From contig CAZIUK010000003.1 in the NCBI GenBank assembly GCA_964542785.1, forward strand, positions 12,946-76,945: 64,000 bases of DNA. The letters are read 5' to 3'. The position numbers were made by a program, and so were the translations under genes. The stretch is from an uncultured Planctomycetales bacterium (GTDB lineage Bacteria; Omnitrophota; Gorgyraeia; Gygaellales; Profunditerraquicolaceae). This document shows, one piece after another, positions 32,629 to 59,340 of this stretch. The notes below the pieces were generated by a model. That model searched no databases. It saw nothing but the letters and a program-made list of their open reading frames with translations, and had not been told where the DNA came from. Position 1 is the first letter of the stretch, and the number at the start of each line of letters is the position of its first letter.

Positions 32629-32665
32629 GGGGACAGCGACTTTTTTATCAAAAAGTCGCTGTCCC
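32629..32665. repeat. REP-like inverted pair (hairpin): GGGGACAGCGAC-ttttttatcaaaaa-GTCGCTGTCCC
   Basis: I read it directly from the sequence. It lies in the 20-bp gap between the secretin-1 stop and the likely secretin-2 start. Confidence 0.8.
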
Positions 32666-32670
32666 TATTT

Positions 32671-36656: not shown

Positions 36657-36669
36657 GGGGGACAGCGAC
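36657..36669 (+). repeat. REP-like single copy GGGGACAGCGACT
   Basis: It is an exact copy of the 12-mer core. Confidence 0.7.
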
Positions 36670-36818: not shown

Positions 36819-36872
36819 GGGGACAGCGACTATTACTATTTTTGCGCTATGATAAAAAAAGTCGCTGTCCCC
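36819..36872. repeat. REP-like inverted pair with a 30-nt spacer (GGGGACAGCGAC ... GTCGCTGTCCCC)
   Basis: The spacer contains the likely ATG (36849) of the downstream gene. The second arm AAAAAAGTCGCTGTCCCC is translated as KKVAVP within the signal peptide. Confidence 0.8.
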
Positions 36873-39338
36873 ATTTTGGTTGCGTGTTTTTTTGTTGTCG
36901 CAGCGCAGGCAGAGGTCTTGGTAATTAAAGCTCCCTTAACTTGGGGGCTTGATAAATCCGCAGAATACCCTTTGCCAAAAGTATTAAACGGTATTTATAC
37001 AACTGACCAGTTTGTAGCTACTGAAGGACAAGTTAGCGCTATTACGATGAATTGGGAATCAAGGGGCGCTATATCAATGGAGGTAAGCGCTGATAATGGG
37101 CTGCATTATACTCCGGTAATAAATGGCGTTCCTTTAGAGAGCGGTTTTGTAAGTGGAGATAGGATTCGCTGGCGGGCACAAGCGCTAAATGAGGATGCGC
37201 AGTTAACAGCGGTGAATCTTTCTTATTCTGATACATCCGGAGTAATAGGGGATTTTGGCCAGCCACTTTTAAGCGGATTTATGTACCGTAAAGAATTTAT
37301 AGTGCGCAATGATTCTAGAGAAGATTTATACAATTATCAGATGAAGCTAAGAATAGGGGAAAGTGAATTAGCCAAGGATGCTGATATCTGCCTTTCTAAA
37401 AAAGCAAAAGAGGATTTTAGCGATATAAGAATTAGCGCATCTGATGGTAAGCGTATTTTATCCTATTATCTTGAAAGCATAGAAGGCGAGCTTCCAGGAA
37501 AGCGCAGTGCTGTAATTTGGGTTAATATTCCTCAACTGCCAAAAGAAAAAGATTTAAAGCTTTACCTATATTATGGGAATCCGCAGGCTTTAAGTTTATC
37601 AAGCGGCGAGCAGACGTTTGATTTTTTTGATGATTTTAAAGACCCTGCCAAGAGCAATGAGAAATGGATAACCTATACAGAAAAAAACGGTACCTTGCAA
37701 TTAAAAAATGGGGAAATTAAGCTTGATGCAGCCGAAGCCATTACAAAAGATTTTCTTTTTAAAGAAGGAATTGTTGAGTATCCCGTAGAGATTGAGAGCG
37801 GTTTTGAAAACAGTTTAAACTTGCGTGTCCAGAATGGTAACTCTTATGATATTCCGCTTTGGTCGGGTTATTCTTCTTTATACAAAGGTGCAGAGCATTG
37901 CATTGCTGTAGAGGGGACAGTAAGAAATAATGACACAACTGCTCTACCTTCTTTTGCCGGAAATAGGTATTACTACCGTTTTGAATATTTTAATGGTAAT
38001 ATAGTCTTTAGCCGTTTTGATGCTTTGACTAAAGAAAAGCAGGCAGAGGCAGTCTTTAAGTCTGATTCTTTGCAAAAAATAGGCTATCTGTCTTTGCGTT
38101 CCGGAGGTGACGGGAATGGCAAGAATGTTATTCGTTTTGGCGCTATACTTGTGCGTAAAGCTGCTTTAATCAAACCGTATTTTGTTTCAGCAGGAAAAGA
38201 AGAGCAACTCTCTTTGCCTATTTTTTCCGGTACAACTCTTTCTTCTTTTGGGAGCCTTACTTTGGCCAAAGGGGCAATGAGCGGGCATTATATTTCAAGT
38301 AATATCCGAAGCGAAGACCAGATAAGGATCATGATCCCTGACTGGGATATTGATTCTCTTGGAGGAGAGTTTATCTTACATCTTTCTGCTGATGCCGGCG
38401 GGTCATATAAGAAAGGCTGCGAAAAGGGGAAGTATTATTATGCTTCAAAAAAGGATTTTGTCCCCGGGAAAAACTTAAAGATACGCATTGACCTTTTAAA
38501 AGGGGCAGGCTCCGAAGTCGAAAAAGTCGCTGTCCCCTTTGTGAAGGTGGAGCATAGGGCAGGAAAGGTAAATATTATTTCACCTAATGGCAGAGAGGTC
38601 TGGGAGGTAGGAAGCAGTAAGAAGATTAGCTGGAGTGCCTTGGATTACGATGAAACTTATCTTTTTGATTTAGCTTACTCTGTCAATGGAGGAAAGGATT
38701 ATATTGAGATTATAGCCAATAAAGATAATGATGGAGTTTATACTTGGGTTGTCCCGGATAAAATTACTAAAATCGCAAAGATAAAGATATCTGATTCTTT
38801 GGATAAAGGTATTTATGATCTTTCCGATGCTTATTTTTCTATTGTAGCTAGAGAAGATTTAAGCATTCAGGAAGAGAAAAAAGAAGAAGCAGGGGTAGTA
38901 GTGCAGGCAGCGCTAAAAGATAAAGCCAGTAAAGAGAGCAAAGATAAGAAAGATAAAGTTACTAAAGAAAGCAAAAAGAAGAAAGATAAAGTTAGCAAAG
39001 AGAACAAAAAGTTGCCGGGGAAAAATCTTTATGATCTTTTAATTAAGATAGGCGATAGCAGGTCTTCCTACAGCGAGGGGGATATTGTTATCTTAAGGCC
39101 TTCAGGTTATATTTGGAGCGTTGAAGAGAGGGAGAAGTTTTTGATTGCGCAGGTATACCTAACTGAAAAGCAGGCTGAGGAATTAACCTCTCCTTTAAAA
39201 ACAAAGGATGGAGAGATATTAAGCCGCAGGAAATATAGGATTAACTTGCTTAAGCAGGGGCTTAAAGGTTTGACAGGGTCAATTAAAAGGCCAAAGGGCT
39301 CTTTTGAGGCAGGGGTTATTGAGGATAAGGCAAATTAG
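36849..39338 (+). CDS. Large secreted protein (~830 aa) of unknown function with a K/E-rich low-complexity segment
   Basis: The likely start at 36849 gives the signal peptide MIKKVAVPILVACFFVVAAQA. The track start 36768 lies within a TATAAT-like element and runs through the microsatellite and REP. The K/E-rich segment is KDKASKESKDKKDKVTKESKKKKDKVSKENKK. Confidence 0.5.
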   Translation: MIKKVAVPILVACFFVVAAQAEVLVIKAPLTWGLDKSAEYPLPKVLNGIYTTDQFVATEGQVSAITMNWESRGAISMEVSADNGLHYTPVINGVPLESGFVSGDRIRWRAQALNEDAQLTAVNLSYSDTSGVIGDFGQPLLSGFMYRKEFIVRNDSREDLYNYQMKLRIGESELAKDADICLSKKAKEDFSDIRISASDGKRILSYYLESIEGELPGKRSAVIWVNIPQLPKEKDLKLYLYYGNPQALSLSSGEQTFDFFDDFKDPAKSNEKWITYTEKNGTLQLKNGEIKLDAAEAITKDFLFKEGIVEYPVEIESGFENSLNLRVQNGNSYDIPLWSGYSSLYKGAEHCIAVEGTVRNNDTTALPSFAGNRYYYRFEYFNGNIVFSRFDALTKEKQAEAVFKSDSLQKIGYLSLRSGGDGNGKNVIRFGAILVRKAALIKPYFVSAGKEEQLSLPIFSGTTLSSFGSLTLAKGAMSGHYISSNIRSEDQIRIMIPDWDIDSLGGEFILHLSADAGGSYKKGCEKGKYYYASKKDFVPGKNLKIRIDLLKGAGSEVEKVAVPFVKVEHRAGKVNIISPNGREVWEVGSSKKISWSALDYDETYLFDLAYSVNGGKDYIEIIANKDNDGVYTWVVPDKITKIAKIKISDSLDKGIYDLSDAYFSIVAREDLSIQEEKKEEAGVVVQAALKDKASKESKDKKDKVTKESKKKKDKVSKENKKLPGKNLYDLLIKIGDSRSSYSEGDIVILRPSGYIWSVEEREKFLIAQVYLTEKQAEELTSPLKTKDGEILSRRKYRINLLKQGLKGLTGSIKRPKGSFEAGVIEDKAN
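38526..38537 (-). repeat. REP-like single copy (GTCGCTGTCCCC) embedded inside the coding sequence
   Basis: GAAGTCGAAAAAGTCGCTGTCCCCTTT is translated as EVEKVAVPF, the same KVAVP peptide as in the signal peptide. Confidence 0.6.
38931..39011 (+). repeat. 33-bp imperfect tandem repeat (about 2.4 units) encoding the KESKDKKDKVT / KESKKKKDKVS low-complexity segment
   Basis: The units are aaagagagcaaagataagaaagataaagttact and aaagaaagcaaaaagaagaaagataaagttagc. Confidence 0.6.
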
Positions 39339-44022: not shown

Positions 44023-47000
44023 ATGAAGAAAATACTCAAGGTATTATTAATAGGCGGGTTAGCGCTCTGGGGTTATTTTGAATCCGCATCCTTGGCTTTA
44101 GGAGCTAATCTTTCTATCTCAAGCGCGTCTGATCAGACCTTTATCTCTGAGGAAGCGCCTAAGGATGCGCAGGCTATAACCATTACTGATGTATCTGGAT
44201 CCGGCATAATCGTTTCAAGCGGGTTGAGGATACTTATCCCGGATTCTTTCGGGATGCAGTGGCATGGGGCTATGCTTAGGGATGATAGCGTGACTGATAC
44301 CTCTAACGCTGATTTTAGTGTTATTGCCGCGCAGATAATCTCTGCCGGGGTAACCTTGGAAAGTTCAGATGCCGGAGCAACCGGGAGCGTGGAGGTTAAT
44401 TTTACCAGTATAAACTCTATACCTGCTGATGCAAAGATAGTGATTACATTCCCGGATAATTTTGTTTTTAATTCTAAAAGCCCAACTCTTGCTTCTTCTG
44501 CCACAATGAGCGGGGATTTTAGTGTTAGTATTACTGGGCAGGTTATAACAGTTACCCGCAACTCAACTTCGGCTTCTTCTGCTGGAAGCCACTTAATTAC
44601 CTTAACTAATATTAAGAATCCGATTAGGCCGGGAACAACTGGGGCATATTCATTGAAGATCCAGACTCTGGCGGGGTTTGATATTGATGTGAATAATGAT
44701 TTAGCCGCTTCCACGATTGTCCCTGCGGCAACTTCCCGTATAACTTTAAATTCTCCGGATGATATGACTGCAGGCGCAGCGCGCGCAGCCTACACCTTAA
44801 CCCGTTATGATGAGTACGGTAATTTAAGTACACAAGAGGAAGAAGTCTTTGACATTTCAACTACCTCTACCGGGGATAATGCTGTTTTCTACAATGATGC
44901 TACTGCAAGCGAAGCCGGGAATATCATTACCAGTATCACTATCCCCCAGGGTTCTTCTTCGGTTAACTTCTGGTATGACGATACCAAGATGGGGGCGTAT
45001 ACAATTGCGGCTATTAAATCAGATCAGCCTGAGATTACCGTTTCTGATGGTATAAATGTAAAGCATGCTGAACCGGATCATTTAAGGTTTGTTTCTGATA
45101 TACCTACTGCGGATGCCAAGCAGGTCTCTGTGCAGTTTAACCTGCCTCAGCTTGCTGCTGTTGACCGTTATGATAATATACTTACTAATGACTACGGAGC
45201 TGCTGCTTATTCCGGGAATAAGGCTATAACCTATTCCTTAAGCGGTCAAAGAGACGCTCCCGACGGAAATGGGACAGATCTTTTTTATTCCGACAATGTA
45301 GCTTCGGCGAAGGTAAATTTTACTAACGGCCTCTCAACAAATGCCCTTAGCGCTAAGTTATACCGGGCGCAGAATACGGTTATATCCCCGGCGGATAGTA
45401 ATCTTCCCAGCGAGAGTCTTCCTTCTAACGAGATTATTGTTAACCCGGCTACAGCGACAAAACTGGTCTTTAAACAGCAGCCTTCTGGCAGTGCGATAGT
45501 CAACTCTGCCTTTTTACAACAGCCGGTAGTAGCTATCCAGGATCATTACGGCAACCAGACTTTGGATATATTCCCGATAAAGCTCTATGATTCTATCCGT
45601 TCGGAATTTCCTTATGCCGATGCTCCTGGAATTTTAACTTCTGACCACGAGGATAATACATTAAATGCCGTTGCAGGCGAGGCGTCTTTTAGCGGGGTTG
45701 AATATAATGCCTCAGGTGTAATATACCTGTATGCCCAAGGATTAGGCGCAGGCAGCAATGTTAACCCTGTTTTTTCAAATGAGATAACCCTGGCTACTTC
45801 CGTCACAACCATGGTTAAGGCCGCGGATACTCCTGTAGCTGACTTTAACCTAACTCCTACCAACGATACATTGGAAAAGAAGTTTAAGGTTTTAAAGTTT
45901 AAGGTAACTGATGCCGGAGAAGATAAGACTCCTACATTGATCGATCAGATTAAAATAGCAGTATCCGGCACCGGGGGTCATGCTTCTACAGATATTGCCT
46001 GGGCAGGTTTATATGTAGGAGAAGAAAAGGTGGCGGATGCTGCTTCTATAACAGATGACTTTATTACTTTTGGGCAGGAGCCTAACAGCGATTCTACTGC
46101 AGGTATCTACAGCGTGCCTGATAGTAGCTCTGTTGAATTTACCGTGTATATCCATATGAAGCCGGATAAGTTATCCGCCCTTGACGGCCAGTCGTATATC
46201 TTTACTACTGATGAAGATAGGGTAGGGGTTGACAGAGGGGCTTCTTCGCAAATGACGGCAAGCTCAGGCAGTATAGCCGCTGTTACCGGAACTATTAAAG
46301 TTGATATGACGCATCTTGAGATTGTAACTGAAGAAGGAGCCTCAACATTAACTGTCTCTGCTGGGGTGCCGGTAGAGCTGTTGGTGCGCGCTACCGACGC
46401 TAATAAGAACATAGATAGCGATTATAATGGTAGCCATACCTTAGTCTTCTCAGGGTTAAATAGTGTTGGTACCCTTTACCCAAAGATAGAGAGTGTCCTT
46501 TTTGGCTATAATATAACTATTTCTTTTTCAGGAGGTATTTCTGCTTCTCAAGGAGTTACCCTTACTCCTTATAAGAGCGAGGAAGGTATAATCGTTGTCC
46601 AGGAATCAGGAAAGTCTTACAGTCAGCATGGATTAACTGCCACGATTGTCCCTGCGGCGACTTCCCGTATAACTTTAAATTCTCCGGATGATATGACTGC
46701 AGGCGCAGCGCGCGCAGCCTACACCTTAACCCGTTATGATGAGTACGGTAATTTAAGTACACAAGAGGAAGAAGTCTTTGACATTTCAACTACCTCTACC
46801 GGGGATAATGCTGTTTTCTACAATGATGCTACTGCAAGCGAAGCCGGGAATATCATTACCAGTATCACTATCCCCCAGGGTTCTTCTTCGGTTAACTTCT
46901 GGTATGACGATACCAAGATGGGGGCGTATACAATTGCGGCTATTAAATCAGATCAGCCTGAGATTACCGTTTCTGATGGTATAAATGTAAAGCATGCTGA

Positions 47001-50000
47001 ACCGGATCATTTAAGGTTTGTTTCTGATATACCTACTGCGGATGCCAAGCAGGTCTCTGTGCAGTTTAACCTGCCTCAGCTTGCTGCTGTTGACCGTTAT
47101 GATAATATACTTACTAATGACTACGGAGCTGCTGCTTATTCCGGGAATAAGGCTATAACCTATTCCTTAAGCGGTCAAAGAGACGCTCCCGACGGAAATG
47201 GGACAGATCTTTTTTATTCCGACAATGTAGCTTCGGCGAAGGTAAATTTTACTAACGGCCTCTCAACAAATGCCCTTAGCGCTAAGTTATACCGGGCGCA
47301 GAATACGGTTATATCCCCGGCGGATAGTAATCTTCCCAGCGAGAGTCTTCCTTCTAACGAGATTATTGTTAACCCGGCTACAGCGACAAAACTGGTCTTT
47401 AAACAGCAGCCTTCTGGCAGTGCGATAGTCAACTCTGCCTTTTTACAACAGCCGGTAGTAGCTATCCAGGATCATTACGGCAACCAGACTTTGGATATAT
47501 TCCCGATAAAGCTCTATGATTCTATCCGTTCGGAATTTCCTTATGCCGATGCTCCTGGAATTTTAACTTCTGACCACGAGGATAATACATTAAATGCCGT
47601 TGCAGGCGAGGCGTCTTTTAGCGGGGTTGAATATAATGCCTCAGGTGTAATATACCTGTATGCCCAAGGATTAGGCGCAGGCAGCAATGTTAACCCTGTT
47701 TTTTCAAATGAGATAACCCTGGCTACTTCCGTCACAACCATGGTTAAGGCCGCGGATACTCCTGTAGCTGACTTTAACCTAACTCCTACCAACGATACAT
47801 TGGAAAAGAAGTTTAAGGTTTTAAAGTTTAAGGTAACTGATGCCGGAGAAGATAAGACTCCTACATTGATCGATCAGATTAAAATAGCAGTATCCGGCAC
47901 CGGGGGTCATGCTTCTACAGATATTGCCTGGGCAGGTTTATATGTAGGAGAAGAAAAGGTGGCGGATGCTGCTTCTATAACAGATGACTTTATTACTTTT
48001 GGGCAGGAGCCTAACAGCGATTCTACTGCAGGTATCTACAGCGTGCCTGATAGTAGCTCTGTTGAATTTACCGTGTATATCCATATGAAGCCGGATAAGT
48101 TATCCGCCCTTGACGGCCAGTCGTATATCTTTACTACTGATGAAGATAGGGTAGGGGTTGACAGAGGGGCTTCTTCGCAAATGACGGCAAGCTCAGGCAG
48201 TATAGCCGCTGTTACCGGAACTATTAAAGTTGATATGACGCATCTTGAGATTGTAACTGAAGAAGGAGCCTCAACATTAACTGTCTCTGCTGGGGTGCCG
48301 GTAGAGCTGTTGGTGCGCGCTACCGACGCTAATAAGAACATAGATAGCGATTATAATGGTAGCCATACCTTAGTCTTCTCAGGGTTAAATAGTGTTGGTA
48401 CCCTTTACCCAAAGATAGAGAGTGTCCTTTTTGGCTATAATATAACTATTTCTTTTTCAGGAGGTATTTCTGCTTCTCAAGGAGTTACCCTTACTCCTTA
48501 TAAGAGCGAGGAAGGTATAATCGTTGTCCAGGAATCAGGAAAGTCTTACAGTCAGCATGGATTAACTGCCACGATTAATGCGGGTGCTGCCAGTAATATT
48601 GCCCTATTAAGCGGCAATAACCAATCTGGAAAGATAGCCGCGCCTCTACTCCAGGCTTTTGTGGTGGCAGTTACCGATGTTTATGGTAATGGTATTGGAT
48701 CTGGGACCGGGGTTGATTTTGCTATTCTTAGCCAGCCTGAAGGTGCAACAGGAGCTTTATTAAGCACTATTTCTGGTGTAACTGATGCTAATGGCCATGC
48801 CTTTACAACCCTGACTGTAGGTAGCCTTGCTGGTGATTATCAGGTGACTGCTTCTTCAGCGGGGTTATCTGGTTCACCGGTAACTTTTATCGCTACGGGT
48901 TTACTCCCTAGTGCAATTCAGCTTTTAAGCGGAGATAACCAGTCTAAACAGGTAGTTTCTGCATTAGATGACCCTCTGGTAGTTAAAATAGTTGATTCAA
49001 CAGGTATTCCTATTCCTCGTGAGAAAGTGGATTTTACTATATCTTCTTATCCTGAAGGCGCGGTTGGGCAAGCGCTCTTGTCAGGCTCAGTGGTAACTGA
49101 TGATAACGGCCAGGCACAGACCAGCTTTACTTTAGGAGATAAGGCAGGGGTTTACAAGGTAACTGTTAATTGCGGTTCGCTTACTGCGGTTGATTTTAAT
49201 TTTAATGCTACTGCCAGGGCTCCTTATCAGGTAGCCTTAAGAGGTCCGGTTTCAGTCAAGGCAGGGGAGGTCTCTACCAAATTTACCGTCTCCATAGAGG
49301 ATGAATACAATAATCCTTCTAATTTATCCCAGGCAACTGTATTTTCATTAACCAATAATCCTTCTCGGCCAAGCGGAATATTTTATTCAAATAGCGACGG
49401 GACGTTAGCAATTAATTCTCTGACTGTAGCTAAGGGTACGAATAGCGCCAGTTTTTACTATAAGGATACAATAACTGGCATGGCGAATATTACGGCAACC
49501 CGTACTAGCGGGCAGTCTTTAATCCAGGGAATATCAAGCCAGGAAGTTACGGTTATCCCTTCGGATGCCTATCGTTTTACTATTGTTGGCAATACTGATA
49601 CTATAGAGACAGGGGAAAGTAAAGTATTGACCATAACCGCTTATGATAATTTAGGCAATGTAAAGAGCGATTATACCGGGAATGTTAATGTTCTCTTCTC
49701 TGGGGCTAGTGCTTCCCCAGCTCCTTCATCAAAGAAAGCCACAGCTTCTAACCATCTAAGTCAGGATATTGAATTTGGAAAGACTACCAGCCTAAACTTT
49801 ATTAATGGTGTAGCTGTTTCAACCTTGAAGTTTTATAAAGTAGAGGATGTGAATATAAAGATAACCAGCGGTTCAATAGTTACTGCTGAAGAGGATAGTC
49901 TAAGCTTTACCGTCAGGCATGGTCAGGCAGATCACTTGAAATTCGGCGGGAATCTTCCTGCTTTGCAGGAGGCGGGGGTAGAGTTTGATTTTGAAACTAC

Positions 50001-53000
50001 GCTGCAAGCGGTTGACCTTTATGATAATATCTGCAACGGCCTTAATGGTTCTTCCGGATTCTCTGGTTCAAAGAAGGTTACCTGGAGTTTAAGCGGAGCT
50101 TCTGATGGACCTGAGGGGAATGTTATTGATGAGTTTGTCAGTCCTGTAGAGTTTAGCTTAGGGGTATCCACTACTACTTTAAGCGCAAAGCTCTACCGTG
50201 CACAGGATACCACCATTACCGCTGCTATTTCTGCTTTAATAGGGGTAAATGTTGCTTCGAATACAATTACAGTTGAGCCTGGGGCAGTAGCAAAGCTAAG
50301 GTTCTCTCAGGAGCCTGCGGCTTCTTCCATTACCAGTCAGGCTTTAGAGGTACAGCCTAAGGTTGCGGTAAGTGATCAGTATGGTAACCCTGTTTCTACT
50401 ACCTCGGCTAACGTAAGCATTGCTGCTTCAACTAGCAATGATTCATTTGTACCTGTGGTTAATGGAGTATTAAGCGCTATTGGAGGACTTACAGCATCTA
50501 CAGTTAACGGAGTAGCTTCTTTTAGCGGAGTAACCTATAATTATCCTGAGACTATTTACCTTCGCGCCACAGTCGCAGGGGTAAGCCTGGTGCCGGTATT
50601 CTCTTCAGGTATAACATTTAGTACCGCTCAGGAAACAGCTCTCTCTGTTACTACACCAGGGCCTACTGCTATTTCTTCTCTTGCCTATACTACTGCAGAC
50701 AGAGTTGGGGTGCTTAATTTTAGGGTTGTTGATGGGGGGACTGATGGTTTCTCCAGTAAGATACGCCAGGTGATTGTAAAGCGCAACACCTCTGATACTA
50801 CCGGCGGGTGGACAAATTACCTGCAGGGAGTCTATATTACCGATGGAGCAACGCAGGTGGTTGGGAGGATAGAGGATGATCAGATTATTTTTGGCTTGGG
50901 GGGAAATGATATTTATGATGTTACTAACGGCACGACTAAGAATTTTACTGTGAGCGTATTTTTGAAGAATCCGCTCCCCTTAGATTCAGATAATAAGGTT
51001 TTGGGTTTCAAGCTTGATCCGGCTACAGATATAGTATTTGGTTCACCTAGCTCTAGGCTTGTCTCTTCTTCTGTGATGAGTTCAACTCCAAAGATCTCGG
51101 TTGTGGCTACTGATTTTGCTATTTTTGGCTCTCCTACCATGAATGCCGGAGATACCCAGCCGATTACGCTTAAGGCCGTAGATATACTGGGCAATATTGA
51201 TAAGGATTATGTTGGAGAAAAAACTTTAGTTTTTAGCGGACCAAGTATAACGAGTAAAGGAAATGAGCCCATCGAGACGACCTCAAATATTCCTTTTGGT
51301 ACGGATACCCCGGTTTCTTTTACCAACGGCCAGAGCTCATCTACCGTCGGGATTAAACTCTTTAAAGCCGAAACTGCTTATGTTAAGGCAGCCGATATTT
51401 CTGCGGGGATAACTACTCCTAATCAGAAAGCCTTGATTGTTACGGTTTACGGCGGAGCTGCCACGGGTTTAAGTTGGCTTACCCAGCCGGTGGGCGTAGT
51501 TGTCGAAAATGCCCCGTGGAAAGAGTTTAGTATTTCAGTTACCGATGCTTATGGCAATACCTCATCCAGCAGTACTGAGGTAACCGTAGCTCCTTCTAAC
51601 GGCAGTATCTCTACAGGTTCGCAGGCAACAGTTACCGCTCAATCGGGAATAGCCACATTCTATAATTTTGCGGTAAATGGTCTTAATGATGAAGAGAAGA
51701 TCACTTTAAGCGCATCAGCAAGCGGGGTAGCCGGTACCGGTCCTTCCAATGAAGTGCAGGTATTTAAGGTTTATAAGGTAACGGTCTTTGTAAAAGATTA
51801 TACTAGCGCTAGTAATCTTACTGAATGCGCTTTGGATGCCACATCTAACGGAGTAGTCGTAGATGGTTTTCCAAAGACAGGCAACAGCCCGTTTACTTTT
51901 AACTTGCCCTACGGGACGTATACCTTCCGGGTCTCTAAGGAAAAATATGTTGATGAAAACACCGAAAAGACAGCTGGTGTTGCCGCGGATTACCTGGACG
52001 GAGTATATGATGCAAAGATTACCTGGTCTTTGACTGCTACAAGTTTAGTTGAGGCTACTGCTGATTATAAAGCACAGAGCGCTTTTGTTTATGATGAAAG
52101 TACTGACAAGCTTTCTATCCGCGTCTGGCTGGAGAAGCGCGGGAAGATGGTAGTTAATGATGATGTTAATATTTTAGGTAATGCGGTTGTAGATATCTAT
52201 AATGATTCTACCGGGGGATGGCTTAAGTCAATTACCTTAGAGCCTCCTGCTGCGTCTAATACTGTAAATGGAGTTTATTTTAAGGAGATACCTAATGTAG
52301 TTTCTGTTGACGATGATTTTAACCTTGTTGCAGGCAAGACCTATTTTGCCCGTGTTGTCATTAATTATGGTGGGCTTACTGGTACAGGCAGAAGTTATGA
52401 AGGAGGAGCGACCTTTAGTGTTACTATAAACGAGAATCTGCGCGCAGTTACTAATTCTATTCAGACGGTTGCTACTAATATCGCCGGGCAGACTGCGGCA
52501 ATTCAAAAGACGATAAAGGATGAGATAGAAGGCCAGATTACTAGTGTTGTTGTGCCTAAGATTACTGATGTAAAGACTGAGACATCTAAGATTCTTTCTG
52601 CCACAGGCACAGAGTCTTTGCAGGATAAGATTGCCGAGGTAAAAACACAGGTAGTCCAGGAGGTTCAGCCGCATATTAAATCCGGTATATTAAATGGAGA
52701 GACTGCGGTAAGAACTGGCTCTAAACTAGCTGTTCGTTATCGAACTGATTCTGGACTTTCTCCAACGATATCCGTATATAGCCCCAAGAACAATCTTCTT
52801 ATCTCCGACAGGGCTATGGCAGAGATAGGGATAACGGGAATCTATGAGTATAATGTAACATTTTTACCGGCTTGGGGGAGGGGATCCTTTACTATTGTTT
52901 GTTCAGAGCCGGTAAAAGGAACAGCTGATGCCTTTGTGCTTAAGGTAAGTGATTCGGATATAGAGGATATATCAAGTAGTGTCTCTGCTGTTTTAGGTAG

Positions 53001-53370
53001 CACCTCTGGCATTACCAACCTTAAGAAAGTAACCGAAACCTTAAACGCGCAGTTTAGTGATATGGATAAGGCTATTGCCCAAATCAGCAAGAATATTACT
53101 GGAAAGGTTGAAGAGGTAAAAGGGGCTGCCGTTGAACTTGCCGGCGTATTTAAGCAGCTTGAGGATATGAGTAATACCATTAAGAGCTTAGGAGGGACAG
53201 CCGGTATAAATATTGATAAGATTTACGAGGTATCTAAAGATAAGCAGGAGGATATTAGTTATATTAAGAATAAGAGCGAAGAGCTTAAGGCGGCGATGGA
53301 GCTTAACCAAAAGATGATAGAGAATGTTGCTAAGAAGCCAGTAGTTCAAACCTGGTTTGAATTCAAGTAA
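44023..53370 (+). CDS. Giant (3115-aa) secreted adhesin/S-layer-like protein built of repeated beta-sandwich modules, with a coiled-coil-like C-terminus
   Basis: It is a single uninterrupted ORF with a signal peptide (MKKILKVLLIGGLALWGYF). It contains diverged internal module repeats plus one near-identical 643-aa tandem duplication. Confidence 0.6.
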   Translation: MKKILKVLLIGGLALWGYFESASLALGANLSISSASDQTFISEEAPKDAQAITITDVSGSGIIVSSGLRILIPDSFGMQWHGAMLRDDSVTDTSNADFSVIAAQIISAGVTLESSDAGATGSVEVNFTSINSIPADAKIVITFPDNFVFNSKSPTLASSATMSGDFSVSITGQVITVTRNSTSASSAGSHLITLTNIKNPIRPGTTGAYSLKIQTLAGFDIDVNNDLAASTIVPAATSRITLNSPDDMTAGAARAAYTLTRYDEYGNLSTQEEEVFDISTTSTGDNAVFYNDATASEAGNIITSITIPQGSSSVNFWYDDTKMGAYTIAAIKSDQPEITVSDGINVKHAEPDHLRFVSDIPTADAKQVSVQFNLPQLAAVDRYDNILTNDYGAAAYSGNKAITYSLSGQRDAPDGNGTDLFYSDNVASAKVNFTNGLSTNALSAKLYRAQNTVISPADSNLPSESLPSNEIIVNPATATKLVFKQQPSGSAIVNSAFLQQPVVAIQDHYGNQTLDIFPIKLYDSIRSEFPYADAPGILTSDHEDNTLNAVAGEASFSGVEYNASGVIYLYAQGLGAGSNVNPVFSNEITLATSVTTMVKAADTPVADFNLTPTNDTLEKKFKVLKFKVTDAGEDKTPTLIDQIKIAVSGTGGHASTDIAWAGLYVGEEKVADAASITDDFITFGQEPNSDSTAGIYSVPDSSSVEFTVYIHMKPDKLSALDGQSYIFTTDEDRVGVDRGASSQMTASSGSIAAVTGTIKVDMTHLEIVTEEGASTLTVSAGVPVELLVRATDANKNIDSDYNGSHTLVFSGLNSVGTLYPKIESVLFGYNITISFSGGISASQGVTLTPYKSEEGIIVVQESGKSYSQHGLTATIVPAATSRITLNSPDDMTAGAARAAYTLTRYDEYGNLSTQEEEVFDISTTSTGDNAVFYNDATASEAGNIITSITIPQGSSSVNFWYDDTKMGAYTIAAIKSDQPEITVSDGINVKHAEPDHLRFVSDIPTADAKQVSVQFNLPQLAAVDRYDNILTNDYGAAAYSGNKAITYSLSGQRDAPDGNGTDLFYSDNVASAKVNFTNGLSTNALSAKLYRAQNTVISPADSNLPSESLPSNEIIVNPATATKLVFKQQPSGSAIVNSAFLQQPVVAIQDHYGNQTLDIFPIKLYDSIRSEFPYADAPGILTSDHEDNTLNAVAGEASFSGVEYNASGVIYLYAQGLGAGSNVNPVFSNEITLATSVTTMVKAADTPVADFNLTPTNDTLEKKFKVLKFKVTDAGEDKTPTLIDQIKIAVSGTGGHASTDIAWAGLYVGEEKVADAASITDDFITFGQEPNSDSTAGIYSVPDSSSVEFTVYIHMKPDKLSALDGQSYIFTTDEDRVGVDRGASSQMTASSGSIAAVTGTIKVDMTHLEIVTEEGASTLTVSAGVPVELLVRATDANKNIDSDYNGSHTLVFSGLNSVGTLYPKIESVLFGYNITISFSGGISASQGVTLTPYKSEEGIIVVQESGKSYSQHGLTATINAGAASNIALLSGNNQSGKIAAPLLQAFVVAVTDVYGNGIGSGTGVDFAILSQPEGATGALLSTISGVTDANGHAFTTLTVGSLAGDYQVTASSAGLSGSPVTFIATGLLPSAIQLLSGDNQSKQVVSALDDPLVVKIVDSTGIPIPREKVDFTISSYPEGAVGQALLSGSVVTDDNGQAQTSFTLGDKAGVYKVTVNCGSLTAVDFNFNATARAPYQVALRGPVSVKAGEVSTKFTVSIEDEYNNPSNLSQATVFSLTNNPSRPSGIFYSNSDGTLAINSLTVAKGTNSASFYYKDTITGMANITATRTSGQSLIQGISSQEVTVIPSDAYRFTIVGNTDTIETGESKVLTITAYDNLGNVKSDYTGNVNVLFSGASASPAPSSKKATASNHLSQDIEFGKTTSLNFINGVAVSTLKFYKVEDVNIKITSGSIVTAEEDSLSFTVRHGQADHLKFGGNLPALQEAGVEFDFETTLQAVDLYDNICNGLNGSSGFSGSKKVTWSLSGASDGPEGNVIDEFVSPVEFSLGVSTTTLSAKLYRAQDTTITAAISALIGVNVASNTITVEPGAVAKLRFSQEPAASSITSQALEVQPKVAVSDQYGNPVSTTSANVSIAASTSNDSFVPVVNGVLSAIGGLTASTVNGVASFSGVTYNYPETIYLRATVAGVSLVPVFSSGITFSTAQETALSVTTPGPTAISSLAYTTADRVGVLNFRVVDGGTDGFSSKIRQVIVKRNTSDTTGGWTNYLQGVYITDGATQVVGRIEDDQIIFGLGGNDIYDVTNGTTKNFTVSVFLKNPLPLDSDNKVLGFKLDPATDIVFGSPSSRLVSSSVMSSTPKISVVATDFAIFGSPTMNAGDTQPITLKAVDILGNIDKDYVGEKTLVFSGPSITSKGNEPIETTSNIPFGTDTPVSFTNGQSSSTVGIKLFKAETAYVKAADISAGITTPNQKALIVTVYGGAATGLSWLTQPVGVVVENAPWKEFSISVTDAYGNTSSSSTEVTVAPSNGSISTGSQATVTAQSGIATFYNFAVNGLNDEEKITLSASASGVAGTGPSNEVQVFKVYKVTVFVKDYTSASNLTECALDATSNGVVVDGFPKTGNSPFTFNLPYGTYTFRVSKEKYVDENTEKTAGVAADYLDGVYDAKITWSLTATSLVEATADYKAQSAFVYDESTDKLSIRVWLEKRGKMVVNDDVNILGNAVVDIYNDSTGGWLKSITLEPPAASNTVNGVYFKEIPNVVSVDDDFNLVAGKTYFARVVINYGGLTGTGRSYEGGATFSVTINENLRAVTNSIQTVATNIAGQTAAIQKTIKDEIEGQITSVVVPKITDVKTETSKILSATGTESLQDKIAEVKTQVVQEVQPHIKSGILNGETAVRTGSKLAVRYRTDSGLSPTISVYSPKNNLLISDRAMAEIGITGIYEYNVTFLPAWGRGSFTIVCSEPVKGTADAFVLKVSDSDIEDISSSVSAVLGSTSGITNLKKVTETLNAQFSDMDKAIAQISKNITGKVEEVKGAAVELAGVFKQLEDMSNTIKSLGGTAGINIDKIYEVSKDKQEDISYIKNKSEELKAAMELNQKMIENVAKKPVVQTWFEFK
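44711..48568 (+). repeat. Near-perfect tandem duplication, 2 x 1929 bp (643 codons, in frame), inside the giant gene
   Basis: Copy 1 is 44711-46639 and copy 2 is 46640-48568. The 8-bp junction homology ccacgatt repeats at 48569-48576. The only difference I noticed is a vs g at 44729/46658, which is synonymous. Shadow ORFs at 1929-bp offsets confirm the identity. Confidence 0.85.
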
Positions 53371-53390: not shown

Positions 53391-53449
53391 GGGGACAGCG
53401 ACTTTTTTGATAAAAAGTCGCTGTCCCCCTAGAAAAAGTCGCTGTCCCC
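53391..53449. repeat. REP-like triplet: GGGGACAGCGAC-tttttgataaaaa-GTCGCTGTCCCC-ctagaaaaa-GTCGCTGTCCCC
   Basis: It starts 20 bp after the giant-gene stop. The first pair forms a hairpin and probably acts as a terminator or mRNA stabiliser. Confidence 0.8.
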
Positions 53450-53495: not shown

Positions 53496-54200
53496 ATGAT
53501 AAAAATACTATTGAAGGGTAGGTTTAATTTTATTCTAATTATCTTTATTGCGTTATTTCTTTTTTTTGTTCCTGCGGAAGCTGGCATTACTATGCGCCTT
53601 ATGGCAGTAAACCCGGCTGATTCAGAGCAAACCGTTCCGATAAAGGTTTATCTTCCTGTAGAAGTCAAGCCCGAAGATATAATATATAAAGACGATTTAG
53701 ATGTAGCTTATGATACCCAGCAGGGAAGTTATTATGTTTTTGGAGAATTCCTCTTAGCCCCTAAAGAGGTATTAGAGAAAGAAATAGAGATAAAGGATAT
53801 CTGGGTTATAGATTTAAGCGAGGTTGAAATGTTACGCTTAGAGGCTAAGGATATGCTGAAGTCTTTTAAGAAGACAAAGTATTATGAACGCGCCCAGCTT
53901 ATTTATAATGGGATAGATAAAAAGCTTAAAGAGGTAGAAGAGGAGCAAGATTTGTCTTCTGCCAGCCCTGCTTATAAGATTTCAAATTATAGAAATTCTT
54001 TAAGTTTGATTGATTCTGTCAAGGCCGATCTTGTCTCAGCTAAAACCCTTTTATCTGAGGCTTTACCTAAAGGTATGGCTAAGCTTACTTGGGGAGTTAT
54101 TTTGTTTATTGTGCTTTTTTTAGGGGTTTTAGGGGGAGGATCTTTTTTTATTTGGCAACACCAGTCAAGGCTTGAATCTGAAGAGAAGACCAAGGAGTAA
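53496..54200 (+). CDS. Membrane protein of unknown function, with an N-terminal signal/TM segment and a C-terminal TM anchor
   Basis: The N-terminus reads FILIIFIALFLFFVPAEA and the C-terminus reads LTWGVILFIVLFLGVLGGGSFFIW. Confidence 0.4.
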   Translation: MIKILLKGRFNFILIIFIALFLFFVPAEAGITMRLMAVNPADSEQTVPIKVYLPVEVKPEDIIYKDDLDVAYDTQQGSYYVFGEFLLAPKEVLEKEIEIKDIWVIDLSEVEMLRLEAKDMLKSFKKTKYYERAQLIYNGIDKKLKEVEEEQDLSSASPAYKISNYRNSLSLIDSVKADLVSAKTLLSEALPKGMAKLTWGVILFIVLFLGVLGGGSFFIWQHQSRLESEEKTKE

Positions 54201-54266
54201 ATAAAATAAATACAAATATTATCAGGACAGATAGGGCAAGCCCTTTTAATACCTAAACGTTAATTA

Positions 54267-55046
54267 ATGAAAAGGGAATTTGTTATTTTATTAGTAATTT
54301 TATTTTTTTTTGTGCATAGTTTAGGCGCGCAGGCTTCAGAAGGGCTTTGGAATACTGAAAAGACTCAGCATTTTATAATATATTACCAGTCTGCCCAGGC
54401 AAGTTTTATTCGGGATTTGGCTTATGCCGCTGAAAGGTATTATAACAGCATTATTGATGAGCTTGGTTTTAGGCGTATGGATTTTTGGAGTTGGGATAAC
54501 CGGGCTAAAATCTATATATACAATGGATTTGAAGATTATAAAAAAGAGGCTGACCGTAAAGATTGGTCTGGTGCGGTTGTTTTTGTGGATACCCGTACTA
54601 TTAAAAGTTTTTTAGGGCAGTTTGATTTTTTTGATTCTATCCTTCCGCATGAGATGACCCATATAATATTCAGGGAATTTGTGGGTAGAGAAGCAATCCT
54701 TCCTTTGTGTATAGATGAAGGAGTTGCAAGCTCTCAGGAGAAAGGCCATTTGCATGAGAGGTTATCTTTGATAAAGAAACTTATTTTGCAGGGAAAATAT
54801 ATGCATTTTGATAAATTATTCAATATCTACCAGGCTAAGGGTATAAGCCCTCAGGAGTTTTATGCCCAGTCAGCCTCGCTCGTTGTTTTTTTAATAAAAC
54901 AATATGGAAGAGAACGTTTTGTTGATTTTAGCCGTAAATTAAGGGACGGAATGCTTTGGGATAAGGCTTTATTAAGCGTATATAAGTTTAAGAGCTTTGC
55001 AGATATGGAGAATGAGTGGAAAGATTTTATTTTGAGAAATTTCTGA
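54267..55046 (+). CDS. Secreted putative zinc-metallopeptidase-like protein (HExxH)
   Basis: It has a signal peptide. ILPHEMTHIIF is the only HExxH in the protein. Its length is 259 aa. Confidence 0.4.
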   Translation: MKREFVILLVILFFFVHSLGAQASEGLWNTEKTQHFIIYYQSAQASFIRDLAYAAERYYNSIIDELGFRRMDFWSWDNRAKIYIYNGFEDYKKEADRKDWSGAVVFVDTRTIKSFLGQFDFFDSILPHEMTHIIFREFVGREAILPLCIDEGVASSQEKGHLHERLSLIKKLILQGKYMHFDKLFNIYQAKGISPQEFYAQSASLVVFLIKQYGRERFVDFSRKLRDGMLWDKALLSVYKFKSFADMENEWKDFILRNF

Positions 55047-55075
55047 AATACTGCTATAATAAACAGTGATATAGT

Positions 55076-55087
55076 GGGGACAGCGAC
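55076..55087 (+). repeat. REP-like single copy GGGGACAGCGAC (left flank of the RayT remnant)
   Basis: It is an exact 12-mer in forward orientation. Its partner at 55700 is in reverse orientation. Confidence 0.75.
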
Positions 55088-55213
55088 TTTTTGACTTTTT
55101 ATTTTTAGCTCTTTGATAATTTTTACTTAAATTTTTAAGTTAGATTTCCTTCCTTGCCGCGTCTATTGATAGTGAAGGTGATAGATGATATAGGGCCTAA
55201 AAGGAAGGGGTGG

Positions 55214-55650
55214 TATGGGGAGAATAGCCAGAATAGTAGGAGTAGGGTTGCCGCACCATATTACACAGAGAAGGAATTACCAATAATGTTGCTCATATGC
55301 GTTATTCGCAGTATTTTAATAATAAATTAAACCAGCGAGGGCATCTTTGGCAGGGAAGATTTTATTCTTGTATTTTGTCGCAAGCGCACCTTATGCTTGC
55401 TGCTTGCTATATAGAGCGTAATCCTGTACGCGCGGGTTTAGTAGATCAGCCATGGCATTGGCAATGGTCAAGTGCTGCCAGCCATACAAACCGTAAGATT
55501 GATGAGTTGGTTAATTCTGATGAGTTGTTAAAGCTTGTAGGTATGTCAAGCTCTTCTTGGGAGAAATATATAGAAACAAAGGAAGAAGAGAGTTTTTTGC
55601 AGGATATAAGGAAACATACTTTTACCAGTCGTTCTTTTGGCGTGGTTTAG
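55214..55650 (+). pseudogene. Decayed RayT / IS200-IS605-family HUH Y1 tyrosine-transposase (REP-associated transposase) remnant
   Basis: ATG 55214 encodes MGRIARIVGVGLPHHITQRRNYQ*, which matches the conserved N-terminal ...HH(V/I)TQRGN block. A frame change follows, and ORF 55297-55650 encodes ...NQRGHLWQGRFYSCIL...YIERNPVRAGLV...WQWSSAASH, the conserved C-terminal GxLWQxRFxS / YIxxNPVxAGLV / WSS blocks. The central HuH (HVHLL) segment is missing. Confidence 0.65.
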
Positions 55651-55699
55651 GTTATTTTAAGGAGCAGGTCTAAGAAGGATAGGGTTGGGTTAAAAAAAA

Positions 55700-55711
55700 G
55701 TCGCTGTCCCC
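55700..55711 (-). repeat. REP-like single copy GTCGCTGTCCCC (right flank of the RayT remnant)
   Basis: It is an exact 12-mer in reverse orientation, preceded by A8. It lies 24 bp upstream of the GGDEF gene. Confidence 0.75.
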
Positions 55712-55735: not shown

Positions 55736-56614
55736 ATGCATAAAGATGTAGATATTTTAGTTATCAAAGGAGAAGAAAAAGCCACAGGGTTGATTGAATC
55801 TACGGTTCGTTCTGCAGGCTACAATGTTTGGTTGGCCAATGATCATAATGAAGGCTTGAAGCTTTTGCGTTCTAATACTTTCCCGATAGTAATTACAGAA
55901 GTACTTTCTGTAAAGATGGATGTTGCTCACTTTTGTAGAGAGGTCAACAAACTAAGCCCGTTGACTAACGTGATTGTTGTTGCCCTCTATTCTTTAATTA
56001 ATAACGCTATTAAGGCTATGGAGGCAGGGGCTTACGGGTATATTACTAAGCCACTAAATGTTTCTGAAATACGTATAGTCGTGGAGAGGGCAGTAGAGAG
56101 GTACTTTCTGTTTTCTGCCAGGGAAGATAAGGATTATTTTGTTGATTTAGCTGTAAGGGATGGGCTTACCGGACTTTTTAATCGGCGCTATTTTAATGAA
56201 TTAATAAAAATAGAGTTTAGCCGCATTAAGCGGTTACCGTCGTTTCTCTCTCTGCTAATTCTTGACATAGATAATTTTAAAAACTATAATGATACGCAAG
56301 GACATAGCGCAGGCGACATTTTATTAAAGAATGCCGCTAAAATTTTTAAGAGTTCTGTGCGTACCGTAGATATAGTTTTTCGCTATGGGGGAGAGGAGTT
56401 TGCAGTAATACTTCCTAGTACAGATAAAAAAGGGGCTCAGATTATTGCAGAGAGGATACGTATGCAGGTGAGCCTGTATCTACCTACTACTGTAAGTATA
56501 GGCATTTCTACTGCCCCAGAAGATGCCGAGGAGATAAGCCTATTGATAGAGAAGGCGGATAAGGCTTTGTATCAAGCGAAGAACAGTGGTAAAAATAAGT
56601 GGTGTGTTGCATGA
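55736..56614 (+). CDS. Response-regulator-like receiver (atypical) fused to a GGDEF diguanylate cyclase
   Basis: The receiver-like N-terminus reads IVITEVLSVKMD, with Glu where the phospho-acceptor Asp is expected. The GGDEF domain has an intact RYGGEEF active site and the upstream DGLTGLFNRRYF I-site region. Confidence 0.75.
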   Translation: MHKDVDILVIKGEEKATGLIESTVRSAGYNVWLANDHNEGLKLLRSNTFPIVITEVLSVKMDVAHFCREVNKLSPLTNVIVVALYSLINNAIKAMEAGAYGYITKPLNVSEIRIVVERAVERYFLFSAREDKDYFVDLAVRDGLTGLFNRRYFNELIKIEFSRIKRLPSFLSLLILDIDNFKNYNDTQGHSAGDILLKNAAKIFKSSVRTVDIVFRYGGEEFAVILPSTDKKGAQIIAERIRMQVSLYLPTTVSIGISTAPEDAEEISLLIEKADKALYQAKNSGKNKWCVA

Positions 56615-56835
56615 GGGTTCTTATACTAGAGCCTAAAGGGACTATTTGGGAGGGGATAGCAGAGCAAGTGACCCTTCCGGCTAAAGAAGGTCAAATGTGT
56701 GTGCTTGATTTTCATCAGCCTTTTGCAGTTAGGTTGATAAATGGCAGCATTGTTTTTAGCAATAAAAGAATAAAAATAAAAGACGGGGTTGCTTATATGC
56801 GGTCTAACAATTTGACGGCCTTTGTGCAAACTTAA
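56611..56835 (+). CDS. atpC: F-type ATP synthase epsilon subunit carrying only the N-terminal beta-sandwich domain (truncated)
   Basis: RVLILEPKGTIWEGIAEQVTLPAKEGQMCVLDFHQPFAVRLINGSI...DGVAYMRSNNLTAFV aligns with the epsilon N-domain pattern (IVSPE..F.G.V..V.LP...GE.GILP.H.PLLT.L.PG...VSGGFLEV....VTVLAD). It is only about 74 aa, with no C-terminal helical hairpin. ATG 56611 overlaps the GGDEF TGA stop (ATGA); the track's GTG 56599 is an alternative start. Confidence 0.5.
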   Translation: MRVLILEPKGTIWEGIAEQVTLPAKEGQMCVLDFHQPFAVRLINGSIVFSNKRIKIKDGVAYMRSNNLTAFVQT

Positions 56836-56840
56836 AAAAT

Positions 56841-57053
56841 ATGAGTAGTATAGGATTAATTATCGTTATGTTTTTAAGCACTGCCGGCCCGGCTGCAGTT
56901 ATAGCTTTTGTAGGATATGCTGCGGTTAAGGCGGTCGCGCGTAATCCTTCCGCGAGCCCAAAGATATTTACTGTTATGATTCTATCATTTATATTCGCAG
57001 AGGCGATAGCGATTTTAGCCCTTCTGATTATATATAATTTGTTTACCAAATAA
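56841..57053 (+). CDS. atpE: F-type ATP synthase c subunit
   Basis: The 70-aa two-helix hairpin has a GxGxGxG-like N-helix (AGPAAVIAFVGYAAV), an RNP loop (ARNPS) and the carboxylate helix FIFAEAIAILALLI. Confidence 0.8.
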   Translation: MSSIGLIIVMFLSTAGPAAVIAFVGYAAVKAVARNPSASPKIFTVMILSFIFAEAIAILALLIIYNLFTK

Positions 57054-59280: not shown

Positions 59281-59340
59281 GGGGACAGCGACTTTTTTCT
59301 AAAAAAAGTCGCTGTCCTCCCATAAAGTCGCTGTCCCTCC
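59281..59340. repeat. REP-like triplet between atpA and atpG: GGGGACAGCGAC-ttttttctaaaaaaa-GTCGCTGTCCtCC-cataaa-GTCGCTGTCCCtCC
   Basis: It is an intercistronic, BIME-like arrangement with slightly degenerate arms. It is preceded by short GAAATGGGGGAC direct repeats at 59259-59283. Confidence 0.75.

Follow-up and report, generated by a model that had tools for sequence, protein, structure and literature searches.

What kind of element occupies positions 55,076 to 55,711 of a 64,000-nucleotide stretch of contig CAZIUK010000003.1 (assembly GCA_964542785.1), assembled from an uncultured bacterium of the phylum Omnitrophota, and does its gene still function? Throughout this stretch, hereafter the window, a short repeat recurs, and two single, inverted copies of it enclose the remnant of a Y1 transposase gene of the HUH type. 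The initial annotation regarded the locus as a REPtron, that is, a decayed RayT gene associated with repetitive extragenic palindromic (REP) sequences. The present analysis shows that the transposase gene is dead at this locus, and that the same terminal inverted repeat (TIR) is dispersed in the genome from which the window derives and in at least three other Omnitrophota genomes as singles, hairpin doublets and small clusters, mostly in intergenic regions. The element as a whole is very probably a TIRtron, with a gene resembling those of TnpA-Y1 subclass 2.1, as judged by protein motifs, BLASTP matches and the TIR motif.

Dispersed repeats around a single Y1 transposase locus

The 12-mer GGGGACAGCGAC, initially reported from eight loci, has 11 exact matches in the window, compared with 0.00 expected from 100 dinucleotide-preserving shuffles of the same DNA. 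Three further copies with one mismatch (32655, 59308 and 59327, all on the minus strand) bring the total to 14 copies at these 8 loci. The positions originally given proved accurate to 1–2 nt (36657 was corrected to 36658 and 59340 to 59338). The 12-mer itself is real, but the full conserved unit is longer, consisting of GGGGACAGCGAC and a T-run (T5–T8), 17–20 nt in all. Pairs of inverted units form perfect 17-bp stems, in agreement with the hairpins first proposed: RNA folding of the four paired loci gave −29 to −43 kcal/mol (z −5.5 to −8.5), and two paired window loci folded as single-stranded DNA (ssDNA) were likewise stable (z about −8.6), while a lone unit (55070–55110) was unfolded (−2.5 kcal/mol, z +0.59). 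On their 5′ side the 14 copies have A/T-rich sequence (aaaa/aaat) and no GTAG/GTGG tag in common. The copies are depleted in open reading frames (ORFs), 5 of the 14 lying inside them versus 95% of the window bases under a deliberately generous mask that accepted any ORF of at least 100 aa. No Rfam family was found at the repeat sites, and a CRISPR-like or tandem array was rejected in view of the irregular spacing and the inverted copies.

As proposed in the initial annotation, inverted single copies at 55076 and 55700 bracket the gene remnant, which is the only Y1 locus in the 64-kb window; the Y1/HUH gene of this element is present solely as a pseudogene whose HUH part is deleted (Table 1). 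Two ORF pieces in different frames are recognisable, one of 23 aa (55215–55286), with a Shine-Dalgarno-like AAGGAAGGGG ahead of its ATG, and one of 117 aa (55297–55650), ending in a TAG (55648–55650) that is GAG in a sister species. Both pieces had been thought to match conserved blocks of RayT. This holds for the C-terminal piece, which matches the NCBIfam model NF047646 (REP_Tyr_transpos; E=1e-8, 35 bits, model positions 96–146 of 146) and, weakly, Pfam Y1_Tnp; the N-terminal piece alone matches no profile, but it shares 22 of its 23 residues with the beginning of the intact protein in the sister species. The remnant remains below the cutoffs of both models, as is to be expected of a fragment. 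In the intact orthologues the right-hand TIR overlaps the last codons of the gene (..KKVAVPILGA and ..EMVAVPI, each directly followed by the stop). The public annotation behind P0002 records positions 55392–55650 as an 85-aa ‘hypothetical protein’ (MLAACYIERNP...), which is better annotated as a transposase pseudogene fragment.

The protein search retrieved about 250 relatives, mostly from Omnitrophota metagenomes, of which the complete ones are typically 165–205 aa long. The closest full-length relative among them, P0001 (locus L115; 205 aa, 78% identity), has the neighbourhood of the window, namely, Peptidase_MA_2, the transposase gene, a response-regulator/GGDEF gene and ATP-synthase genes. 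Scanning of species-representative genomes for the repeat 17-mer yielded JBASUY01, a sister Omnitrophota genome that is about 90% identical to the window and collinear with it; there the gene at the corresponding site is intact (225 aa) and lies between the same single inverted repeats. Alignment of the leaders revealed a motif, GTTAGATT...GCGTCTATT(G/A)A, common to the window, JBASUY01, L115, a third Omnitrophota species (JAUYEC01, locus L046) and the distant L120; in the window this motif (55139–55170) may well act as a promoter or operator. A strong sigma-70-like site, TTGAGA-17-TATAAT with TG, is also present immediately beyond the left TIR (55032–55060).

Genome-wide copy numbers outside the window are lower bounds. 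JAUYEC01 contains at least 73 TIR copies, and a doublet of about 59 nt accounts for 33 of the 38 repeat clusters in 21 of its contigs. It consists of 19–20-nt TIRs separated by an asymmetric interior of 20–23 nt, which exists in two subfamilies and occurs in both orientations; the outer flanks co-vary (AAATA...TATTT or AAAAA...TTTTT), and the stems reach 25–29 bp as ssDNA, with z about −10 (−8.6 to −11.5 over all doublets tested, those of the window included). These copies also shun ORFs, with 22 of the 73 inside them against 90% ORF coverage. The intact 213-aa gene of JAUYEC01 lies in a different neighbourhood and has a complete ~59-nt doublet on each side, the two doublets being mutually inverted. 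The doublets of this genome are a REPIN-like population. The interior of subfamily B (CACGCTTGCTAACAGCGACGGGG) holds a partial third TIR core (ACAGCGAC), for example in L044 (2388–2447) and L111 (125–184), a hint that rearranged TIR units are the source of doublet interiors.

The repeat also exists as a short hairpin in a fourth species, JAQTTQ01, and the genes of three more distant clade members lie between inverted repeats with the same GGG(G)AC core. The repeat varies with the protein, with arrays of GGGACAGACAC in L119, AGGGACAGCGAC in L120 and GGGGACGTACAC...GTCCC in L121. Since repeats flank divergent members of the clade and change in sequence with the protein, the association between gene and repeat is systematic and not a coincidence of one locus. 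Single matches to the 17-mer in some 80 unrelated taxa were put down to chance; by our own estimate, a 17-mer should turn up about 70 times in 596 Gb when both strands are counted. In two Candidatus Firestonebacteria species, known from metagenome-assembled genomes, a gene is followed by a perfect tandem duplication of 52 nt that holds GGGGACAGCGACTTTTT twice in direct orientation, the locus being the same in both (L036 4860–4990 and L048 120–250); this is either a related TIR family or a coincidence.

Assignment of the element

The TIRYTs are Y1 genes flanked by TIRs with the consensus GGGGWSAS, with which they form ‘TIRtrons’ (Di Nocera, De Gregorio & Rocco 2013, BMC Genomics 14:522; PMC3733652); their TIRs may be dispersed as singles, dimers and groups, in ‘moderately abundant’ families (PMC3733652). 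In the division of the Y1 superfamily into 12 subclasses (Quentin, Siguier, Chandler & Fichant 2018; PMC6006769), subclass 2.1 is equated with the TIRYTs by its authors, and it corresponds to RAYT Group 1 of Bertels (PMC5581495). The TIRYTs represent the second-largest Y1/HUH branch, found in about 15% of the strains sampled (PMC6006769). Subclass 2.1 is characterised by the HuH motif NHVH or NH[YF]H, W[EQ], YIELNP or Y[IV]HLNP, and SS in the proximal tail, as well as by a conserved distal C-terminal helix-turn-helix (HTH)-like domain (Bac_DnaA_C/HTH_23/HTH_28) that is heterogeneous in subgroup 2.1.2, while subclass 2.2 has DHLH/WE/YIHYNP instead (PMC6006769).

The intact Omnitrophota orthologues contain NHVHF and YIERNP and reach 51–59 bits against Pfam Y1_Tnp (cutoff 23); together with the profile match of the C-terminal piece, this bears out the Y1 identity first given to the remnant. 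In an alignment of 46 sequences the NHVH, WQ, YIERNP and WSS motifs are invariant or nearly so, and YIERNP is one residue off the subclass 2.1 consensus. The beginning of the TIR, GGGGACAG, reads GGGG-A-C-A-G and is an exact fit to GGGGWSAS. When three intact Omnitrophota proteins were compared by BLASTP with the RAYT and TIRYT sequences of the supplementary alignment of PMC3733652, full-length matches were obtained to the TIRYTs gsu_2396 (47% identity, E~1e-66), pca_3049 and aba_2776, and the best RAYT was pfs_3939 with a partial match (E~1e-13), E. coli RayT (eco_b228) giving E~5e-5. The intact sister protein as a single sequence had no phmmer match in the PDB; with the profile of 46 sequences the nearest solved structure was 4ER8, E. 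coli RayT bound to a REP hairpin (E=9e-5). Foldseek with the AlphaFold (AF2) model of P0001 (pLDDT 87) likewise returned 4ER8 first (E=1e-7, TM 0.67), followed by the IS608, ISDra2 and IS200 transposases. The same model has a helical C-terminal tail (H155–191).

Among the alternatives, the one that survives best, improbable as it is, is a canonical REPtron, in which a RayT of the E. coli/Pseudomonas type recognises individually palindromic REPs tagged with GTAG. The architecture fits, with inverted repeats that enclose a Y1 gene and are also scattered between genes as doublets; the best NCBIfam model is ‘REP-associated tyrosine transposase’, which the intact orthologues cover from end to end, and 4ER8 is the nearest structure. 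However, these orthologues remain below the NF047646 cutoff (68–73.4 bits versus 80), the single unit has no fold (z +0.6) and is not an imperfect 20–40-nt palindrome, and its A/T-rich flanks contain no GT[AG]G tag. BLASTP favours TIRYTs (E~1e-66) over RAYTs (E~1e-4 to 1e-13), and the combination NHVH/WQ/YIERNP/SS is that of subclass 2.1, not 2.2 or 2.5. Membership of the canonical REPtrons is thereby largely refuted: of the REPtron organisation first proposed, the Y1 gene with dispersed inverted hairpin repeats stands, and the RayT/REP identity gives way to that of a TIRtron.

Slightly less probable still is that the cassette is, or recently was, an autonomous mobile element of the IS200/IS605 type, the short hairpins being derivatives similar to miniature inverted-repeat transposable elements. 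It is indeed bounded by perfect TIRs, and the gene neighbourhood differs in JAUYEC01. In addition, the block from TIR to TIR, including the non-coding leader (~55046–55711), is only 3.2% diverged from JBASUY01, threefold less than its flanks at 53500–55000 and 55800–57000 (9.5%; binomial p=2e-10), as if it had been replaced recently; the low divergence suggests either recent exchange or homogenisation between lineages, or unusually slow evolution. Against mobility, three lineages with nucleotide identity as low as 76% have the gene at one and the same site, as is typical of a vertically inherited, domesticated gene. There is one Y1 locus in 64 kb, the score against the IS200 model NF033573 is 20 bits (cutoff 55), and the element has no subterminal hairpins, no tnpB partner and the motif Y---NP instead of Y---Q.

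Inactivation of the gene and fate of the repeats

Alignment of the window with L115 shows one clean gap of 161 bp in the window, with both flanking repeats in place. The deletion has removed codons 24–77 of the intact gene and shifted the frame; according to the AF2 model of P0001, these codons encode helix A and two strands, 2 and 3, of which strand 3 bears the HUH motif NHVHF. The loss of the central HuH segment noted at the outset is thus confirmed. Since two independent metagenome assemblies (L117 and L118) carry the same junction and are 100% identical to the window across it, the deletion is real and not an assembly artefact. Compared with the sister gene, the remnant also has a G-to-R substitution in the conserved QRGN motif (at 55272) and a premature stop (GAG to TAG, Glu to stop). 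It differs from that gene by 8 nonsynonymous changes, the stop included, and 5 synonymous ones, while in the housekeeping genes nearby synonymous changes are about three times as frequent as nonsynonymous ones. The nonsynonymous changes strike conserved motifs, such as the TGRP tail, and when P0001 serves as the outgroup, the damaging changes fall for the most part on the lineage of the window. The gene at this locus, already judged dead in the initial annotation, is dead by deletion, frameshift, substitution in a conserved motif and premature stop.

It is very unlikely that the truncated gene is nevertheless alive, with the 117-aa C-terminal ORF, which includes the Tyr motif and the tail domain, expressed as a DNA-binding or regulatory protein acting at the hairpins. 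An ATG-initiated ORF does persist, and the block is unusually conserved relative to the sister species. However, this ATG lacks the Shine-Dalgarno sequence that neighbouring genes have, half of the HUH fold, including three core secondary-structure elements, is gone, and the excess of nonsynonymous over synonymous changes, the hits in conserved motifs and the premature stop all speak against a functional product.

The history of the TIRtron may be pictured as follows. The ancestral state would have been a single-copy TIRYT gene, encoding an HUH/Y1 ssDNA endonuclease-ligase and bounded by 17–20-nt TIRs. If it worked as E. coli RayT and IS608 TnpA do, the intact enzyme would bind the hairpin of a TIR doublet in ssDNA, for example on the lagging-strand template, and would cut and rejoin the DNA beside it by means of an HUH-bound metal and the tyrosine, such that doublets could be copied or moved in trans. 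Once the enzyme was lost, the repeats of the window would be relics, changing only by slippage-type gain or loss of tandem half-units.

All seven comparable repeat loci are found at the same positions in the window and in JBASUY01. The differences between the two genomes at these loci are clean gains or losses of a tandem half-unit (19–24 nt), with indels of 21, 24 and 19 nt at 32629–32666, 36819–36872 and 59281–59338, respectively; at the first of these loci the extra 21-nt unit is in JBASUY01. The unit gained or lost is always the downstream ‘−’ arm relative to transcription, with 4–6 nt of non-repeat flank.

Several points weigh against the interpretation of the locus as a TIRtron whose enzyme once mobilised these repeats. 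The survey that defined subclass 2.1 reported no REP-like repeats around its genes (PMC6006769), Pfam detects no C-terminal HTH-like domain in the three intact orthologues even at E<=5, and the best of these orthologues stays just below the NF047646 cutoff (73.4 versus 80 bits). The comparison of the window with JBASUY01 gave no occupied-versus-empty sites, hence no direct evidence of transposition, and JAUYEC01 shares too little synteny for insertion-site comparison; the half-unit indels could be explained by replication slippage alone, without the enzyme. Perfect copies number 11 of 14 in the window and 12 of 14 in JBASUY01, with no visible decay, although this equal integrity fits a very recent inactivation. 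The analysis covered 64 kb, and an intact paralogue may be encoded elsewhere in the same genome. Finally, the cleavage and mobilisation step is pure analogy.

A broader possibility, which we consider doubtful but worth stating, is that the TIRYTs of Omnitrophota run a true REPIN-type system. In such a system a vertically inherited enzyme would maintain ~59-nt doublets over the long term, the same 17-mer would be kept across species whose enzymes are about 60–80% identical, arms would be recruited into coding sequence, as in the KKVAVP signal peptide, and the cassette would be exchanged or homogenised between species, which would account for its threefold lower divergence.

At the doublet 36819–36872 the right arm (36850–36872) seems to be coding: translation from an ATG within the loop gives MIKKVAVPILVACFFVVAAQA|EV, a textbook signal peptide, at the start of a DUF2341 protein. 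In this frame AAAAAGTCGCTGTCCCC encodes KKVAVP, although the start codon there is only probable. The JBASUY01 orthologue has an in-frame extra unit of 24 nt, giving MIKKVAVPFLKKVAVPFL..., and the intact transposase orthologues likewise end in a C-terminal tail read from the TIR in the KKVAVPI frame. The copy within the same ORF (38521–38537) has a degenerate left arm upstream and no significant fold. Here the sister DUF2341 orthologue has unrelated residues over about equal length, nucleotide similarity between the genomes ending near 38361; this copy may go back to an old insertion into a variable region of the gene.

As to the role of the hairpins, the repeats were initially read as terminators, for instance after the gene of the 3115-aa ORF. 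This claim was not upheld: a scan for hairpins followed by a T-tract between 44000 and 63900 flagged none of the repeat loci (those at 32629 and 36819 lay outside the scan), because the T-run lies inside the stem and not after it. One hairpin locus is situated between atpA and atpG, inside the ATP-synthase operon, where an intercistronic repeat had correctly been described, and efficient termination at this point would be harmful. A role as intrinsic (Rho-independent) terminators is unsupported, as no scanned locus passes and one lies within the atp operon. By analogy with REPs, the hairpins may plausibly affect the stability of mRNA 3′ ends or operon polarity, and in genome annotation they should be recorded as repeat elements, not as terminators. 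That the hairpins are selected by the host as terminators, mRNA stabilisers, or protein-binding or DNA-uptake sequences, and adjoin the Y1 gene by coincidence, is scarcely credible: they do lie mostly just 3′ of stop codons at positions kept between species, and inverted uptake-sequence pairs act as terminators in other bacteria, but inverted repeats flank divergent proteins of the clade at six independent loci and change with the protein, the published TIR motif of the TIRYTs is present, and the terminator pattern failed.

Features of the window and comparison with known systems

Table 1. Positions of the transposase cassette and of the repeat copies in the window.
Feature	Position	Strand	Remarks
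TIR doublet, hairpin with 17-bp stem	32629..32666		19 nt past the stop of secretin gene 1, ~4 nt before the probable start of secretin gene 2
Single TIR copy	36658..36669	+	48 nt past a LuxR-type response-regulator gene; kept in JBASUY01
TIR doublet, 30-nt interior	36819..36872		Right arm overlaps the probable start and signal peptide (MIKKVAVPIL...) of a DUF2341 gene
Single TIR copy, AAAAAGTCGCTGTCCCC	38521..38537	-	Within the DUF2341 ORF, read as EKVAVPF
TIR hairpin and third tandem half-unit (+ - -)	53391..53449		20 nt past the stop of the 3115-aa gene
Left TIR, GGGGACAGCGACTTTTT	55076..55092	+	Starts with GGGGWSAS; also at this position in JBASUY01 and (1 mismatch) L115
Leader motif, GTTAGATT...GCGTCTATTGAT	55139..55170	+	Upstream of the transposase start codon
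N-terminal pseudogene fragment	55215..55286	+	23 codons, MGRIARIVGVGLPHHITQRRNYQ, then TAA made by the frameshift
Junction of the 161-bp deletion	55283/55284	+	From alignments to L115 and JBASUY01
C-terminal pseudogene fragment	55285..55650	+	WQ motif HLWQGRF, catalytic-Tyr motif YIERNPVRAG, WSS tail and IRKHT.T.R tail kept
Right TIR, A8-GTCGCTGTCCCC	55692..55711	-	
TIR hairpin and third tandem half-unit (+ - -)	59281..59338		Two copies with 1 mismatch; atpA stop 29 nt upstream, atpG start 11 nt downstream

All long ORFs with a plausible product in the window (1–64000) are on the plus strand, and the whole 64 kb appears to be transcribed co-directionally. The ATP-synthase cluster has the order epsilon, c, b/delta fusion, alpha, gamma, beta, and is directly followed by a gene for a type II secretion system/type IV pilus ATPase; no gene for the a subunit is evident in the ATP-synthase stretch of the window. 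The ORF of 3115 aa (44023–53370) has no Pfam match. It seems to hold a long internal tandem repeat, several features being found twice with a spacing of exactly 1929 nt: GGCTACAGCGAC (45447, 47376), two identical small hairpins (45258, 47187) and a pair of promoter-like matches (45563, 47492).

Among known systems, the TnpA proteins of the IS200/IS605 family (IS608, ISDra2) have the HUH/Y1 fold in common with the Omnitrophota proteins, and presumably the same ssDNA chemistry. Unlike these transposases, which are of about 150 aa with Y---Q and subterminal hairpins, the element described here combines Y---NP with plain TIRs, lacks tnpB and has a conserved position. REPtrons, or RAYT-REPIN systems, reportedly described by Nunvar in 2010, by Bertels and Rainey in 2011 and by Ton-Hoang in 2012, with structure 4ER8 said to be from Messing in 2012, resemble it in the flanking inverted repeats and the intergenic hairpin doublets, and their single, vertically inherited Y1 gene has a likely parallel in the one locus of the window and its synteny across three lineages. 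However, the Omnitrophota unit has no GT[AG]G tag and is non-palindromic, and the protein is only ~19–24% identical to E. coli RayT.

The similarity to TnpA-Y1 subclass 2.1 (PMC6006769; PMC5581495) extends to NHVH, WQ, YIE(L/R)NP and the SS tail, and to an apparently low-copy, not IS-like occurrence. In contrast to that subclass, repeats are plainly present and dispersed here, no HTH domain is found by Pfam, and the Omnitrophota proteins are shorter (197–225 aa compared with a median of 238).

The closest counterparts are the TIRtrons with their TIRYTs (PMC3733652), likewise Y1/HUH proteins of about 200–230 aa with the signatures PHHVTQRGN, NHVH, GHLWQGRF, Y.E.NPVRA, WSS and IR...TGRP.G; GSU2396, Pcar_3049 and Acid345_2776 show 41–47% full-length identity to the Omnitrophota orthologues. 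The flanking TIRs with GGGGWSAS, the 3′ TIR overlapping the end of the gene and the dispersal as singles, dimers and groups are also shared. The element differs from the TIRtrons of 2013 in its host, a phylum then unsampled, in that the gene of the window is a pseudogene, and in that JAUYEC01 has as its dispersed unit a doublet of ~59 nt, uniform in build, whose asymmetric interior is conserved within two subfamilies, more similar to a REPIN population. Within the library searched, no paper linked Omnitrophota with such repeats. A TIRYT gene and a dispersed doublet family here occur together as a clear case in an uncultivated phylum, where one survey found TIR families and another none, and the window and JBASUY01 form a natural dead/alive pair for asking whether the repeats depend on the enzyme. 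The TIRtron is a kind of element already described but little studied, a cousin of the REP/RayT systems, for which the phylum is new.

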